A DNA stretch of 57,378 nucleotides, filler included, from Basidiobolus ranarum (lineage: Eukaryota): the NCBI GenBank assembly GCA_040143965.1. It is 2 parts of 2 records of this genome, joined end to end, with 100 filler letters (N's around TTAATTAATTAA, not from the genome) between each part and the next. Parts side by side here need not be neighbours in the genome. Positions count along the whole stretch, not along the records: positions 1 to 28,668 come from JASJQH010006987.1; 1 more part is not named here. The stretch is one strand, 5' to 3'. Positions 1-50,412 of this stretch are shown piece after piece (positions within the stretch are counted from its first letter, which is position 1; the number at the start of each line of letters is the position of its first letter). The notes under the pieces are model-generated. The model worked only from the letters and a program-made list of their open reading frames with translations, did no database searches and was not told the DNA's origin. The position numbers were made by a program, and so were the translations under genes.

Positions 1-1146
1 ACTAAGAGCAATGTGGACGCTGGAACCGTTTATGAGACTGTTACTATCAAGAACAATGCCCCGGTATCGATCGGCGCGCAAACTTTCACCGTCACAGGAT
101 CTCACGGTCAAGTCGAAACTATTGTTGAACGTACTATTGTTGTCCTACCTACCGTTGCCCCTCAAACAGTAACTAAGACCAATGTTCGCATTGACTCCAA
201 TGTCGATGCTGGAACCGTCTATGAGACTGTTACTATCAAGAACAGCGCTCCTGTATCTATCGGAGCGCAAACTTTCACTGTCACAGGATCTAATGGTCAA
301 GTCGAAACTATCGTTGAACGTACTGTTGTTGTCCAACCTACCGTTGCTCCTCAAACAGTTACGAAGACCAATGCTCGCACTGACTCCAATGTTGACAATG
401 GAACGATCTTTGAGACTGTTACCGTCAAGAACAACGTCCCTGTGTCTACCAGCGCCAAAACCTTCACCGCCACAGGATCAAATGGTGAAGTCGAAACTAT
501 TGTCGTACAAACTGTTGTTGTTCAACCTACTGTTGTATCTCCTGCAGTCACCAAGACTAAAGTTCGCACTGACCACCATGGTGATATTGTAACCTTACAT
601 GAGACTGTTACCGAAACTGTTACTGAAACTGTTACTGAGAAGAACAATGTACGCACAATCACCGTCACGGTCCCTACTGGAGCACACACTTTCACCGTTA
701 CAGGATCTAATGGTCAAGTCGAAACTATCGTCGAGGATACTGTTGTTGAATCAAACCGAGCATCGCCAACGAAATCCAATACTAAGGCTACCCTTTCAAT
801 CGATTCTCTGAAGCATCGAACTGTCGGTAACTCTTATAGTTGTGCCCCTGGTTGTGCCACCTCCACAGTGACACAGCAATTAGAGGTTGTTCGAACCGTG
901 TTTGTAACAGGAAAGGTTGCTCGTACTCATAGATTTTCTGATACTGTCACACTCACGAAAACCAATCAAGTGCGTCCAACCAATGCTATATGTGAACATG
1001 GAGAATTCAGGTGTCTAGAATCTGGAGTTTCCCCCGTCTTCTTCCAATGTAGTAATGGAGAATATTTCGAAGATTATTGTGGTAAAGGAACCGTTTGCAA
1101 AACTAATGGTAAATCAGTTATTTGTGACTGGGCTGAAATAGCGTAG
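1..1146 (+). CDS. Thr/Val-rich repeat cell-surface protein with C-terminal CBM19-like chitin-binding domain (5' partial)
   Basis: Frame is open from base 1. 63-aa (189 bp) repeats start at 13, 202 and 391. The C-terminal CEHGEFRC...FFQCSNG...CGKGTVC...ICDW cysteine pattern is typical of CBM19. Confidence 0.75.
   Translation, partial: TKSNVDAGTVYETVTIKNNAPVSIGAQTFTVTGSHGQVETIVERTIVVLPTVAPQTVTKTNVRIDSNVDAGTVYETVTIKNSAPVSIGAQTFTVTGSNGQVETIVERTVVVQPTVAPQTVTKTNARTDSNVDNGTIFETVTVKNNVPVSTSAKTFTATGSNGEVETIVVQTVVVQPTVVSPAVTKTKVRTDHHGDIVTLHETVTETVTETVTEKNNVRTITVTVPTGAHTFTVTGSNGQVETIVEDTVVESNRASPTKSNTKATLSIDSLKHRTVGNSYSCAPGCATSTVTQQLEVVRTVFVTGKVARTHRFSDTVTLTKTNQVRPTNAICEHGEFRCLESGVSPVFFQCSNGEYFEDYCGKGTVCKTNGKSVICDWAEIA
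13..580 (+). repeat. 189-bp coding tandem repeat (about 3 copies, plus a degenerate partial copy near 680-750)
   Basis: VDAGTVYETVTIKN..TFTVTGS.GQVETIV units spaced exactly 189 bp apart. Confidence 0.9.
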
Positions 1147-1466
1147 TCTTTAGATTAGATCAATATGTTCAAATTGAAATAAAGAGATTCTTATTATTGA
1201 AATTCCAAAGCTTTTGTAGTTATATTTTGATTATGTGTTGAATAATTTTCGTGACGGAATATTCATTTATTAATGTTCCTTCTAATAGTTATCAATTTAG
1301 GGTTAAGTTGATTTGATTGGTTAAGTTGATTTGATTCATGGGATATTTGTTCTTTTTACTTTTCCTTAAATGACACCAAAAGTTCAGGCTGTATATTATA
1401 TGTAGCAAATAACCTTTATATAATGACATTGTTTGCAATCGACATAATTATGTGCCATACAAAAGT

Positions 1467-19254: not shown

Positions 19255-19620
19255 TTAAGCATCAGCAATGGTAACTTCGACCTCTACTCCGGGTTCGATG
19301 GAGATGGAGGTGATTTGCTTAACGATCTCAGAAGGAGAGTGAAGATCGATGAGACGCTTGTGGATTCTCATTTCGAAACGATCCCAGGTCTTGGAACCCT
19401 CACCGTTAGGGGTCTTACGGGTGGTGATACGAAGGACCTTGGTGGGGAGACGGACAGGACCCTTGACACGGAGTTGCTTGTCCTTAGCACGAGAGACAAG
19501 GTCAGCGCAGACCTTTTCAAGATTCTTGACATTACGAGAAGTCAAAGTGATACGAATCTTGTGGATCTTTGCTTCGACTTGTTCTTCGAAACCGGGTTTT
19601 CCCTTAGCGACGTAAGCCAT
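19255..19620 (-). CDS. RPS20: 40S ribosomal protein S20 (uS10)
   Basis: [14 protein letters not shown]...KGPVRLPTK...[14 protein letters not shown]...HKRLIDL. Confidence 0.98.
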
Positions 19621-20075: not shown

Positions 20076-20591
20076 ATGGGTCGCATGCACACTCCTGGGT
20101 ATGTATTGAATCTATAATACGAATGGATGCATCCAACAACCACTAACTATTTGTACAGTAAGGGTATTGCTTCTTCAGCTCTCCCCTATCGTCGTACTCC
20201 TCCTTCCTGGGTCAAGTCCACCCCTGAGGAAGTTTGCGAACACATTTGCAAGCTCGCCAAGAAGGGTTTGACTCCTTCCCAGATCGGTGTTCTCCTCAGA
20301 GATTCTCACGGTATCCCCCAAGTCAGAAGCGTCACCGGTAACAAGGTTCTTCGTATCTTGAAGGGTAACGGTTTGGCCCCTGAGATTCCTGAAGATCTTT
20401 ACCACCTCATCAAGAAGGCCGTTGCCGTTCGTAAGCATTTGGAACGCAACAGAAAGGACTGTGACTCCAAGTACCGTTTGATTCTCATCGAATCCAGAAT
20501 TCACAGATTGGCCCGTTACTACAAAACCGCCGGTCAATTGGCCCCTAACTGGAAGTACGAATCTTCTACCGCTTCCGCTTTGGTCGCCTAA
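20076..20591 (+). CDS. RPS13: 40S ribosomal protein S13 (uS15), 2 exons
   Basis: [18 protein letters not shown]...[13 protein letters not shown]...[17 protein letters not shown]. Intron approx. 20099-20158. Confidence 0.98.
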
Positions 20592-20760
20592 GTCCTTTTC
20601 CTTATTTCATATTATTTGAAGAAATAAAAGTGTAAGGTATACATTTTTGCATTTCTTTTTGGTTAATTTGTATTTGGTTTTTACTGGTTGCATGGTGATT
20701 CTTTGAATTACGATGCTAGGGGAATGGGAACAGGTTTAGCACGGAGTATTTGTTCGTTTC

Positions 20761-20841
20761 GGAAATGATGACTACTTTTATTTCGAGATTAAATGCCACT
20801 ATGTGGATTTATGCTCTAGTTGTATTCACACTGTCTGATCC
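20761..20841 (+). ncRNA. Box C/D snoRNA copy 1 (guide for the LSU rRNA site equivalent to yeast Um2729; snR51/SNORD41-type)
   Basis: GGA/TCC terminal stem, C box ATGATGA, D box CTGA. The guide TTGTATTCACACTG is complementary to the recalled 25S sequence CAGUGUGAAUACAA. Confidence 0.85.
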
Positions 20842-20868
20842 ATTAATGAACAAACTCTTGCTTATTCC

Positions 20869-20937
20869 GTCTAATTAGCTCTATGGTAGAGCGTAAGATT
20901 TATCTTAAAGGTGTGGGTTCGATTCCCATGTTAGTCT
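20869..20937 (+). ncRNA. tRNA-like element 1 (tRNA-Lys-like body, 4-nt anticodon loop)
   Basis: GTCTAAT TA GCTC TATGGTA GAGC G TAAGA-TTTA-TCTTA AAGGT GTGGG TTCGATT CCCAT GTTAGTC. A and B boxes are present. Confidence 0.8.
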
Positions 20938-20966
20938 TTTGAGTGCAAGTATATTCACATTGTTTT

Positions 20967-21046
20967 GGATATGATGACTTTATTTCTTCGAGATTAAATG
21001 CCACTATGTGGGTTTATGCTCTAGTTGTATTCACACTGTCTGATCC
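20967..21046 (+). ncRNA. Box C/D snoRNA copy 2
   Basis: GGA..ATGATGA...TTGTATTCACACTGT-CTGA-TCC, with the same guide as copy 1. Confidence 0.85.
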
Positions 21047-21080
21047 TCTAATGAACATAGTATATATGCATGCATAATTC

Positions 21081-21151
21081 GTCTAACTAGCTCAAATTGG
21101 TAGAGCGTAAGATATATCTTAAAGGTGTGGGTTCAATTCCCATGTTAGTCT
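21081..21151 (+). ncRNA. tRNA-like element 2 (4-nt anticodon loop)
   Basis: GTCTAAC TA GCTC AAATTGGTA GAGC G TAAGA-TATA-TCTTA AAGGT GTGGG TTCAATT CCCAT GTTAGTC. Confidence 0.8.
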
Positions 21152-21181
21152 TTAAAGAGTTGATAAATTGCAATTAGTTCT

Positions 21182-21261
21182 GGATATGATGATTTTATTT
21201 CTTCGAAATTAAACGCCACTATGTGGGTTTATGATCTAGTTGTATTCACACTGTCTGATCC
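21182..21261 (+). ncRNA. Box C/D snoRNA copy 3
   Basis: Same boxes and same guide, with a C'-like ATGATCT. Confidence 0.85.
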
Positions 21262-21292
21262 AATCAATTTGCAATTTATCCATTCAAAATTC

Positions 21293-21364
21293 GCCTAACT
21301 AGCTTAAAATGGTAGAGCATAAAGATATATCTTAAGGATATGGGTTCGAATCCCATGTTAGTTC
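21293..21364 (+). ncRNA. tRNA-like element 3 (4-nt anticodon loop)
   Basis: GCCTAAC TA GCTT AAAATGGTA GAGC A TAAAGA-TATA-TCTTA AGGAT ATGGG TTCGAAT CCCAT GTTAGTT. Confidence 0.75.
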
Positions 21365-21759
21365 ATAATATGAATAGTGATGATATTTAACCATGTGAAT
21401 TATTCAATAAATTCAAAATTCATCTTAATTTGCGCTTGTAAAGTTGAAAGTAAAAGAGTGTTGTTTATTAACAAAAGCTGCACCTTGACACTGCTATTGA
21501 CCACAAAACAAACAGGTCTCTAATCCATTCATACTTAGATTCGTATACACGAGTGAGTAAAGTTATAAATTTTTGGCTGTTGCGAGGGGTTTATTGTGAA
21601 AACATGGGAAGGTATTAGGGAGCGAGCGGCATTGTTCAGTTATGGTGTTGTTTTTATAAGCGTGAAAAAAAAGAATGGTAACAGGAAGCATAATGGCAAG
21701 TGTGGTAAGAGAAAATTAGAGTAAAATCTTGATCTAGATTGGATTCTACAACATCTGTC

Positions 21760-23461
21760 TTATTTTAAATCAATAATAAACTCCCACCTTCCCTCTGACA
21801 ATCCCTTGGCAGTATCTTCTAGAACAACTTCTCTTCGGCTAGCTACGTAAACACTCTTATCAAGAACATTCTGCTTTAATTCGGTGATCTTGGTAGGAGC
21901 AATTGGAGTTTCAAGAAGTTCACTAAGTTGTTCAACAGCCATCTCTAGATCTCTTTGATTATCTTCAAATAGAGCGGTCATGTTGTTTCTTGCGAGATAG
22001 AACGCAAATGCGTAAGTCCATTTAAGAGTCATACGGCATTCCACTACAGTATCTAATGCTCTTTTAAGAAATTGTACTTCAATCCAAGATAAATCTGACG
22101 TTTGTTGCATCTCTTCCATCTTCTTCTCGGTTTTGGAATACATCTCTCTATCCAGTTTGGCACTCTGCTCGTGATTGGCATACCGATTATAATACTACAA
22201 TGATGGAGTGATTAGTTCTATGTTGATGGCTTTTGTAGAAAGTAGTGATGCTTACATGAAGGTAACGTTCTAGAGTGGCCCTAGAGTCAGCTTGTTTATC
22301 TCTGGCATCTGTGCTACTTTTCTCATCATAGCGATTGCAGTTGTACCAGTTTGTTCCATGCTCTGACCAAGGACCCATGCATACCCAACAGAACTCATGC
22401 CGACATTTTCTACAAGTCATATGGTTACATCCTCCGTTCTTTTCGATGGTAGAGTGACAAGCTGGACATTCCTTGGTGTTTGCAGAAATCCAGTTGGCTG
22501 TCTCTGAATCGTCTTCACATTTTTTGATCCACTGTTTGACTAGAGCACAAATGCATGGTTGATGATCAGCTACACCACAACCAAAACAGAATGTATGGCC
22601 ACATTTGCAGACTACAGTTGGGACGACTGACGAAAGTGAAGTGTGAGGGATGTGGCAGGAGACTGCATATTCACAATTAGGAGCAGGGCACCATCTCAAA
22701 TGGTCGTTGTCATCAACATAGGTACGATTTAGAAGCATCCGATATCTATAAATATACGAGGGTTATTAGGGACATGTCAATGTAACGTTTTCAAAGTAGA
22801 TTTACCTTTCATAAACAGTTGGACTGACAAGTAGCTCCACGGTTTTCGCGTCAATAACTAAATTACAGCATTCACCGGGGCATTGAATCTTCCGACTTTC
22901 TCCTTCTTCCTTGATTTTTTGAACGAGGTAGTGTTGATAACAGTTGATGCAAAACCTATGATTACATGGCAAAGAGACTGTATCTAGATCTGGATCATCA
23001 TCACAGCAGATATCACATACAAAGCCAGGAACCTTGGCGATTTTTACAGGACTTTCGTCGTTTGTGAGGATTCCAGCGTTGGATAAAATTTTCTCCGGTG
23101 TATCCATGTACCTTTCTATCAAAGATTCTTTGTTCCAACGGAAAAATCTAAGTAAGGTAGCAGCTTGTTGTTCTGGAAGTCCAAGAATATTCGAGACGTG
23201 GGTAATCTCTTTATTTTGACATTCAACAATATCTTCAATAGATAGAATAGTGAAGTCAACTTCGTAAATTCTTTTCTTATTTTTTTCTAACATTACAGTA
23301 CTAAAACCCATATCATCTCCGTCCAGTTCATAGTCGTCTTCTAAAACATCGTCATCGTCCTCTTCCTCTTCCATTTCAAATTCACTTCCTTCCTCAAAAG
23401 CGTCGTTTTCTTCAAAACTGCCATCGTCTTGGTATTCTTCGTCGAAATCCATGTCAGACAT
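21760..23461 (-). CDS. ARIH1: Ariadne-family RBR E3 ubiquitin ligase (ARIH1/Hel1), 3 exons
   Basis: Acidic N-terminus, RING1 (CDICC..CNHRFC), IBR (WCPAPNC), RING2 (CPACHSTIEKNGGCNHMTC) and Ariadne domain (LSWIEVQFL..TLKWTYAFAFYL). Confidence 0.95.
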
Positions 23462-49078: not shown

Positions 49079-50412
49079 ATGGATTCTTTTATCTTGCGTG
49101 GAACTCTTACAGGTGATTCTAATTAATAAAGAAATCAGTTTTTGCGTCGCTCTCTGAACTCTCTTTCTATGTGTTGATTACACTTTGTATATCATCTCTG
49201 GAATGGATGGATTGAAAACCCTTACAGATACGTAGAAAGTGCACTGACTTCTAGCGATTTGTAGGTCACACCAACTGGGTTACTGCTATCGCTACTTCCC
49301 CTGAGAACCCTGATATGGTTCTGTCCGCCTCCCGTGGTAAGTTTTAGTTGTACGATACTACGCAACACTCGGGTGTGGATGGTTCTCCCTTTCTCGATAA
49401 GTCCAACATCATTAGGAATCTTACCCGCGATGAATCCAACTATGGTGTTCCTCGCAAGGCTCTTCACGGCCATAACCATTTCATCCAAGACCTTGCCATT
49501 TCCTCCGATGGTCAATTTGCCCTTTCTGCTTCTTGGGATAAGACTCTTCGTCTTTGGGACCTCAACACCGGTGCCACTACTCGTAGATTCGTTGGACACA
49601 CTGGTGATGTTATGTCAGTTGCTTTCTCTGCTGATAATCGCCAGATCGTCTCTAGTGGCCGTGATAAGTCTATCAAGTTGTGGAACACTCTCGGTGAATG
49701 CAAATACAATCTCACCGAAAATGGTCACAGCGAATGGGTTTCATGCGTTAGATTCTCACCTAACCCCGCCAACCCTGTCATCGTGTCTGGTGGTTGGGAT
49801 AAGCTTGTGAAGGTACATTTTCATTTCTTTTCATTTGCTTTTTTGGAATATATGATGTTTGAATATATTTGCTACTTCAGAGAAGGTTACCTTTCAATGA
49901 GACAAACAATCACCAATATCTGATCCAACATCTTGAAATCTCTCCACCTCTTTTGAAATCACTTCATATTGACCTTGTTGCATTATCAGGTTTGGGACCT
50001 ATCCAAGTGCAAGATTCGCACCAACCACATCGGTCACACTGGCTACATTAACACCGTCACCATCTCTCCTGATGGTTCTCTCTGCGCCACCGCTGGTAAG
50101 GACGGTGTTGTCATGTTGTGGGATCTTAATGATGGCAAGCACCTTTACTCCTTGGAAGCTGGCGATGAAGTCAACGCTTTGACCTTCAGCCCCAACAGAT
50201 ATTGGCTCTGTGCTGCTACCTCATCTGGTATTAAGGTTTGGGATCTTGAATCCAAGTCTGTTGTTGATGAACTTCGCCCCGAATTCGTTGGTGTTGGTCG
50301 CAAGTCTAACGATCCTTACTGCGTCTCCCTTGCCTGGTCCGCTGACGGAAATGCTTTGTTCTCTGGATACACAGATAACGAAATTCGTGTCTGGCAAGTT
50401 ATCAGAGCTTAA
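49079..50412 (+). CDS. RACK1: RACK1 (Asc1/Cpc2) WD40 ribosomal protein, 3 exons
   Basis: [37 protein letters not shown] and [12 protein letters not shown] motifs. Introns approx. 49113-49264 and 49813-49990. Confidence 0.97.
49845..49926 (+). ncRNA. SNR24: Intronic box C/D snoRNA U24/snR24
   Basis: Lies in RACK1 intron 2. TTGGA/TCCAA stem, variant C box ATGATGT, guide ATATTTGCTACTT before D' CAGA, C'-like ATGAGAC, and ATCACCAATAT-CTGA. Yeast snR24 is hosted in the ASC1 intron. Confidence 0.9.

Follow-up and report, generated by a model that had tools for sequence, protein, structure and literature searches.

To our knowledge, the endonucleolytic release of small nucleolar RNAs (snoRNAs) is understood for budding yeast (RNase III) and for the transfer RNA (tRNA)-snoRNA genes of plants, and is essentially unstudied in early-diverging fungi. 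In yeast snoRNA clusters, one RNA polymerase II (Pol II) precursor is cut by an endonuclease at RNase III hairpins in the spacers, and exonucleases trim the products; Chanfreau et al. reportedly showed in 1998 that these polycistronic clusters are cut by the RNase III Rnt1. Plants are said to possess dicistronic tRNA-snoRNA genes, described by Kruszka et al. in 2003, which join tRNA-Gly(GCC) to snoR43 in Arabidopsis and tRNA-Met-e to a snoRNA in rice. According to the available parts of two papers, 12 snoR43 copies lie 3' of tRNA-Gly(GCC) genes in Arabidopsis, with RNase P and RNase Z as the processing enzymes (PMC2566860, PMC3858429). In the mascRNA/menRNA system of MALAT1 and MEN-beta, as outlined in the accessible sections of another source, RNase P makes the 3' end of the upstream RNA and RNase Z frees a small tRNA-like RNA (PMC4919922). 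Plant mitochondria use t-elements, degenerate tRNA-like sequences that lie between the genes of a polycistronic transcript and act as RNase P/Z cut sites, as stated in the consulted passages of a review (PMC3858429). Here we describe a nuclear array of three box C/D snoRNAs from the fungus Basidiobolus ranarum (assembly GCA_040143965.1), each followed by a tRNA-shaped element (TLS) with a shortened anticodon loop. The array lies in a stretch of 57,378 nucleotides (nt), which was analyzed as a whole and is called the window below. The COG7 protein encoded in the window shares 70% identity with that of B. meristosporus and 68% with that of B. ranarum, in line with a Basidiobolus-like fungus.

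Our in silico analysis places the array at 20757-21365 on the + strand, as three tandem units of about 213 base pairs (bp). In each unit, a box C/D snoRNA (about 82 nt) is accompanied by a TLS that lies 25, 34 or 31 nt downstream (units 1, 2 and 3), on the same strand in all three copies; the next snoRNA starts 27-28 nt after the TLS (TLS1 to snoRNA2, TLS2 to snoRNA3). The three snoRNA copies all carry an ATGATGA C box, a CTGA D box and a terminal stem GGA/TCC; the guide, which directly precedes the D box, is identical among them. We suggest, with an even degree of confidence, that the TLSs are RNase P/RNase Z cut sites by which the snoRNAs are freed from a polycistronic precursor, probably made by Pol II.

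The tRNA fold of the three elements, proposed by a first-pass annotation made from the DNA alone, was recovered by model searches. The Rfam tRNA model (RF00005) matches all three TLSs over its full length (1-71) and on the + strand, with bit scores (Table 1) above the gathering score of 29 and window-wide E-values between 5e-7 and 1e-4. These are the only tRNA matches found by Rfam in the window, even at E<=1. ARAGORN called two of the three as 'tRNA-???' with a 2-nt 'anticodon' and missed TLS1. All TLSs present the 7-bp acceptor, the D arm, the 5-bp T stem and the 7-nt GTTCRA loop of a cloverleaf; the 7+5 bp acceptor/T stack (12 bp), the 7-nt T loop with GGTTCRA and the GG of the D loop are intact throughout. 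The minimum-energy fold is the cloverleaf for TLS1 and TLS2. In the TLS alignment, 60 of the 63 pair cells hold standard pairs, against 33-49% when the partners are slid by 1-3 columns. A covariance model built from the three TLSs and run with filters off found only these three elements in the window (90-102 bits, the next match reaching 13.7 bits). Folding the whole 641-nt array made the repeats pair with one another and was uninformative on the cloverleaves.

As the first-pass annotation had noted, the anticodon stem closes only 4 nt in each copy. In TLS1, the strands TAAGA (20894-20898) and TCTTA (20903-20907) enclose the loop TTTA (20899-20902). The stem strands of TLS2 (21108-21112 and 21117-21121) enclose TATA (21113-21116), and TLS3 has the same stem, with one bulged A in its 5' strand, and the loop TATA at 21326-21329. 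Because the anticodon arm is only 14 nt long (15 in TLS3), a 5-bp stem with a 7-nt loop is impossible. None of the TLSs thus offers the 7-nt loop with a 3-nt anticodon that characterizes a decoding tRNA, and with 4-nt loops they are unable to decode. Since this 4-nt loop is common to all three copies, decoding was lost before the duplications, and the spacers diverged afterwards.

The stem details reported earlier also hold in our alignment. Acceptor pair 7 is T.G in TLS1 and C-G in TLS2 and TLS3, the D stem is GCTC, GCTC and GCTT against GAGC, and the first T-stem pair is G.T, G.T and A-T (TLS1-3 in each case). Acceptor pair 2 is mismatched in all three copies (T/T, T/T and C/T), and acceptor pair 1 is G.T in TLS3. 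A semi-conserved leader lies just upstream of each element (ATTCC, AATTC and AATTC). The statement that most stem differences keep pairing is correct for standard stem pairs, where four substitutions of four do so. However, each of the four is a transition that creates or removes a wobble pair by a change on one side, and none is two-sided, so that they do not amount to covariation. The likeness to tRNA-Lys proposed for the body proved not to be specific. A phage tRNA-Met(CAT) carries the D-arm, anticodon-stem and variable-region strings of the TLSs too, and the TLS model gives it 51.6 bits. It was one of five loci returned by TLS-pattern scans of prokaryote genomes and viral contigs, the four others having no cloverleaf, and no relative of the TLSs was found in the genomes and contigs scanned.

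The limits of the array indicate which order of the two modules matters. Neither the TLS-specific model nor nhmmer found a TLS upstream of snoRNA1, and no snoRNA copy was found 3' of TLS3, where nhmmer detects no fourth unit. An nhmmer profile of the whole unit matches the three units at E-values of 1e-71 to 2e-64, and its next match in the window has E = 2.5. Since snoRNA1 has no upstream TLS and TLS3 no downstream snoRNA, the functional pair is a snoRNA and then a TLS. A non-decoding tRNA fold thus stands directly downstream of a functional RNA, on the same strand, for three of three snoRNAs. The plant arrangement, with a tRNA module immediately upstream of every snoRNA, breaks down at snoRNA1 and is seen only at snoRNA2 and snoRNA3 (TLS 27-28 nt upstream).

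This layout bears directly on the alternative that survives best, although we hold it to be unlikely. In this alternative each TLS is an internal A-box/B-box promoter by which RNA polymerase III (Pol III) transcribes the downstream snoRNA, tRNase Z separates the two and decoding is dispensable. The B boxes of TLS1, TLS2 and TLS3 (GGTTCGATTCC, GGTTCAATTCC and GGTTCGAATCC) are perfect or near perfect, the A-box-like TAGCT..GG is retained in all three, and the semi-conserved leader precedes each of them. No run of at least five T occurs inside the array, against five T5 runs in the flanks, three of which precede snoRNA1, and two of the snoRNAs do follow a TLS at a short and constant distance, as in the Arabidopsis genes cited above. 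The tRNA-like/pre-miRNA (precursor microRNA) units of murine gammaherpesvirus 68 are another precedent for a Pol III leader. However, snoRNA1 has no TLS in front of it and yet is conserved like the other copies, with identical boxes and guide, and therefore needs a promoter other than a TLS; TLS3, for its part, would drive nothing. The T4 runs at 20937-20940 and 20963-20966, and those inside snoRNA1 and snoRNA3, would also terminate Pol III transcription, provided that four T are enough in this fungus. The roles of promoter and processing signal are not mutually exclusive and could be served by the same TLS.

Comparison of the three units, in which gaps were counted as differences, separates two conserved blocks from diverged sequence. 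Identity between units is 85-95% for the snoRNA block (85-90% for snoRNA1 against the other two copies) and 78-88% for the TLS block. It falls to 33-56% in the snoRNA-to-TLS spacer and to 26-55% in the outer flanks (26-56% for spacers overall). In the three pairwise comparisons, the TLS is more conserved than the spacers (Fisher p = 8.4e-6, 4.8e-6 and 1.5e-6) and does not differ from the snoRNA (p = 0.62, 0.22 and 0.054). Because a diverged spacer separates the two conserved blocks, neither a single gene-conversion tract nor a recent duplication can account for the pattern. Within the TLS, variable columns are 5 of 42 among paired positions and 12 of 31 among unpaired ones (p = 0.011). When 15 substitutions (10 transitions and 5 transversions) were placed at random, zero broken pairs occurred in only 0.028% of 100,000 simulations. 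Judged on these comparisons, the constraint on the TLSs is one on the tRNA body or the promoter boxes and not on decoding. This agrees with the proposal of the first-pass annotation that selection acts on structure or promoter function rather than on translation: the TLS is conserved like the snoRNA, the spacers are near random, and substitutions avoid the stems. The anatomy of the locus points beyond this structure-or-promoter alternative, to processing punctuation.

The same figures leave little room for an inert passenger, namely a functionless tRNA pseudogene with a deleted loop that happened to lie beside a snoRNA and was copied with it by tandem duplication. Such a passenger would be expected to decay as fast as the spacers, whereas the spacers on both sides of the TLS have fallen to 26-56% identity and the TLS itself has not, and its substitutions spare the stems without breaking a single pair (P = 0.0003 under random placement). 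We therefore regard it as improbable, even though only three paralogues are available, two-sided compensatory changes are lacking, and TLS3 is weaker than its sisters (the lowest Rfam score, a bulge, a G.T first pair and a poor cloverleaf energy). It also has in its favor that none of 7 other loci with the same snoRNA guide has a TLS (see below).

That the TLS is itself the product, as a stable small tRNA-like RNA comparable to mascRNA, in mammals a stable by-product, or acts as a TFIIIC-binding chromatin site between the RPS13 and Ariadne genes, or is a tRNA-derived short interspersed nuclear element (SINE), would accommodate the perfect B boxes and also the invariant anticodon stem and common acceptor pair 2 mismatch, which recognition by RNase P/Z alone does not explain, but it is a very doubtful account, as one-to-one pairing with snoRNAs at fixed short distances is unexpected for a free-standing RNA gene or an insulator, and for a SINE, which should occur in many dispersed copies with tails and target-site duplications, the 57 kb of the window hold only three tandem copies, linked to snoRNAs and without A-rich tails.

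If the TLSs are processing signals, the locus would work as follows. tRNA genes would have been domesticated, with the loss of three anticodon-loop nucleotides before the unit was triplicated, and then kept as cis-acting processing modules. The array would be transcribed as one precursor, snoRNA-TLS-snoRNA-TLS-snoRNA-TLS, most likely by Pol II, from a promoter in the 165 nt past RPS13 or by read-through from RPS13. Each TLS would fold into the acceptor/T-arm/D-arm 'elbow' recognized by nuclear RNase P and tRNase Z. A cut by RNase P at the 5' end of the TLS would leave the upstream snoRNA with a trailer of 25-34 nt, which 3' exonucleases would trim back to the small nucleolar ribonucleoprotein (snoRNP). 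A cut by tRNase Z past the discriminator would expose a 5'-phosphate entry point, from which 5'-3' exonucleases would remove the leader (27-28 nt) of the following snoRNA. With its shortened anticodon loop, the excised RNA of about 70 nt would be kept out of translation.

This processing scheme fits what is known of the enzymes and of the spacers. According to the relevant part of a review (PMC3858429), RNase P makes contact mainly with the acceptor/T-arm domain and can do without the anticodon domain. Human nuclear RNase P tolerates a missing anticodon stem-loop or a missing variable region, not both, as reported in the available text of a second source (PMC4919922); this tolerance of only one of the two losses would explain why a stump of the anticodon arm was retained. 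Folding energies of the five spacers lie between 0 and -2.6 kcal/mol, in no case better than those of shuffled sequences. They thus do not have the extended hairpins of RNase III clusters, and, since they are unstructured, the TLS is the only structured candidate cut site between the snoRNAs.

Several observations weigh against the TLSs being processing signals. The cloverleaf of TLS3 reaches only -6.2 kcal/mol against -15.3 for an alternative fold, and is thus 9 kcal/mol worse. Folding z-scores of the TLSs are weak (-1.2 to -1.7), so that the case for a fold beyond chance rests on the Rfam scores. The absence of two-sided compensatory changes among the three TLS paralogues has been mentioned, and the apparent constraint is deduced from these three paralogues only. 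The anticodon stem is invariant in three of three TLSs, which recognition by RNase P/Z alone does not strictly require. A T4 run (20937-20940) starts exactly at the TLS1 discriminator, as in an ordinary Pol III tRNA gene; together with the intact B boxes, it fits the Pol III alternative equally well. Finally, a metagenome scan for the combination of C box, guide and D box returned 7 loci with the same guide and D box, two of them identical in the aligned stretch, of which some may be chance matches since a few are expected by a rough estimate. In none of the 7 was a tRNA or TLS found near the snoRNA-like match (Rfam at E<=1, ARAGORN, and the TLS model, whose best score was 7.2 bits). The snoRNA-TLS arrangement is therefore not general for this snoRNA.

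The coordinates of the array and of the genes around it are given in Table 1. The array sits in a 1.17-kb gap that separates two convergent genes, RPS13 (+) and an Ariadne-type E3 ligase (-), and starts about 165 nt after the RPS13 stop codon. RPS13 (S13/S15) is itself head to head with RPS20 (S10p/S20e, 19255-19620, -), and the pair lies directly upstream of the snoRNA array, which may share the ribosome-biogenesis regulation of the two genes.

Table 1. Coordinates in the window of the snoRNA-TLS array and of the genes that bound it
Feature	Position	Strand	Observations
RPS13 (uS15), last coding exon	20127-20591	+	Pfam Ribosomal_S13_N 1.3e-25, Ribosomal_S15 4.8e-14; stop 20589-20591; AATAAA 20623-20628
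Box C/D snoRNA, copy 1	20760-20842	+	C box ATGATGA 20765-20771; D box CTGA 20835-20838; GGA/TCC terminal stem
Spacer snoRNA1-TLS1	20843-20868	+	Ends in ATTCC leader; fold -1.0 kcal/mol, not beyond shuffles; 33-56% identity to other units
TLS1	20869-20937	+	7-bp acceptor (pair 2 mismatched), D arm, 5-bp anticodon stem, loop TTTA, T arm with GGTTCGATTCC, discriminator T; Rfam tRNA 47.4 bits
Box C/D snoRNA, copy 2	20966-21047	+	C box 20971-20977; D box 21040-21043
TLS2	21081-21151	+	Loop TATA; Rfam tRNA 46.6 bits; ARAGORN 'tRNA-???'; minimum-energy fold is the cloverleaf
Box C/D snoRNA, copy 3	21181-21262	+	C box 21186-21192; D box 21255-21258
TLS3, most diverged copy	21293-21364	+	G.T pair 1; bulged A in anticodon stem; loop TATA; Rfam tRNA 38.7 bits
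Ariadne-type RBR E3 ligase, three open reading frame pieces	21760-23461	-	Pfam Ariadne, IBR, UBA_ARI1 and RING matches; bounds the intergenic region of the array

Both ends of the array were also inspected for remnants of further modules. A decayed TLS 5' of snoRNA1 was rejected, its alignment being no better than those of shuffled sequences (308 of 500 score as high). Past TLS3, the region 21366-21540 (+) has a C-box-like GTGATGA, 13 nt after the TLS (21378), and an inverted 7-nt pair, TATGAAT ... ATTCATA, that brackets about 165 nt. No CTGA D box is present in this region, and its Rfam score for SNORD33 is 19.3 bits, the threshold being 44. A decayed fourth unit at this place was likewise rejected; 61 of 500 shuffles reach the score of its alignment to snoRNA3, which is thus not significant, and nhmmer reports no match.

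Two short motifs of the TLSs deserve mention. The octamer TGTGGGTT is found, in one and the same orientation, within the internal hairpin of snoRNA2 (21008-21015) and at the start of the TLS1 T arm (20911-20918), with equivalents in the other units; it may be due to chance or be a trace of shared origin. The invariant anticodon stump, GTAAGA ... TCTTAA (20893-20907 and the equivalents in TLS2 and TLS3), contains GUAA and UCUU, which would be base-paired in the hairpin. In budding yeast, GUAA and UCUU are the motifs bound by Nrd1 and Nab3 in the termination of snoRNA transcription.

The identity of the snoRNA was addressed through Rfam and through the metagenome loci. All Rfam C/D families score the copies in the window below threshold (best 22.8 bits against 38). 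One of the metagenome loci, L007, carries a two-guide snoRNA at 1115-1201 (+): its D' guide is of the snoR38 type, and its D guide is that of the snoRNA in the window. It scores 45.7 bits against the snoR38 threshold of 45, and the match is carried by the D' guide. The name snoR38 was therefore rejected for the snoRNA in the window, the guide in common being the other one. In the window copies, the stretch past the C box varies and no D' box is evident; from their sequences, they look like single-guide relatives of the L007 type. The common guide may match a site in the large-subunit ribosomal RNA (rRNA).

A second box C/D candidate lies in the window at 49841-49930 (+), inside an intron (about 49813-49989) of RACK1. 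It scores 36.7 bits for SNORD24 (threshold 41) and 34.8 for snoR64 (threshold 45), and the exon downstream of it matches solved RACK1 chains with E-values of 1e-77. RACK1 hosts the U24 snoRNA in budding yeast too. No TLS was found beside this intronic candidate, so the TLSs accompany the non-intronic array, where an endonuclease is needed.

Literature searches, with most subscription-journal papers outside their reach, returned no description of such an array, nor was one found in the accessible text of 'The fungal snoRNAome' (PMC5824354) when it was searched for passages on tRNA, clusters and polycistronic transcripts. It is conceivable, though we lean slightly against it, that an early-diverging fungal lineage replaced spacer hairpins by disabled tRNAs as a general punctuation of Pol II snoRNA polycistrons. 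Related TLSs would then be expected in many other Basidiobolus snoRNA clusters, with RNase P making snoRNA 3' ends and RNase Z opening the 5' leaders, and the excised anticodon-less tRNA might accumulate as a separate class of small RNA. The array by itself, with a conserved and decoding-dead tRNA behind every snoRNA, would show that the tRNA-processing machinery was recruited independently for fungal snoRNA maturation, and that a nuclear tRNA gene can be domesticated purely as an RNA-processing signal outside the long non-coding RNAs (lncRNAs) of vertebrates. It also provides a compact substrate, of about 640 nt, for asking which demands nuclear RNase P and RNase Z make on the anticodon arm.

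Set beside the described systems, the array resembles the plant tRNA-snoRNA genes in content. Both join a tRNA-shaped module to a box C/D snoRNA in multiple paralogous copies, and the plant snoRNA is released by tRNA-processing endonucleases. However, the plant tRNA decodes normally, whereas the loop of the fungal TLS has 4 nt. The plant tRNA stands upstream of its snoRNA and provides the Pol III promoter, while here a TLS lies behind every snoRNA and the first snoRNA has none upstream; the plant genes are dicistronic and the fungal locus is an alternating array. With mascRNA/menRNA, to judge from the part of that literature available to us, the array shares a non-decoding cloverleaf just 3' of a functional RNA, which there is a Pol II non-coding RNA. 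In that system there is one element per vertebrate lncRNA and the end is protected by a triple helix, whereas the TLS is repeated between snoRNAs, the ends would be protected by snoRNPs, and the case is known from sequence. The t-elements, as far as the consulted review describes them, differ in being organellar, in separating mRNAs and in often being more degenerate, some lacking the D and anticodon domains. The Rnt1 clusters of yeast likewise hold several snoRNAs, but their spacers carry hairpins, in place of which the fungal array has unstructured spacers and TLSs.

Further parallels concern other stable RNAs. In Haloferax volcanii a tRNA-like structure upstream of the 5S rRNA is cut by tRNase Z, and in Yarrowia lipolytica tRNA-5S rRNA genes form a Pol III dicistron with a decoding tRNA, both according to the accessible part of one paper (PMC2566860). 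As described there, a tRNA or tRNA-like fold sets the 5' end of a downstream stable RNA, as proposed here, but this RNA is 5S rRNA and the context an archaeal rRNA operon or a Pol III dicistron. A similar design is an engineered one. In polycistronic tRNA-guide RNA arrays made for multiplexing of CRISPR, RNase P and RNase Z release the guides, according to the available portion of the source (PMC4982333). Guide RNAs alternate with tRNA modules in both cases, the former being synthetic with a decoding tRNA-Gly, the latter natural with a disabled tRNA; if the processing reading is right, the Basidiobolus array would be the natural counterpart of these constructs, and their design would already be present in nature. 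Compared with each of these known systems, the array differs in its combination of features: a nuclear location in a fungus, a tRNA that is dead for decoding, a position behind every snoRNA, and an alternating order of snoRNAs and TLSs.

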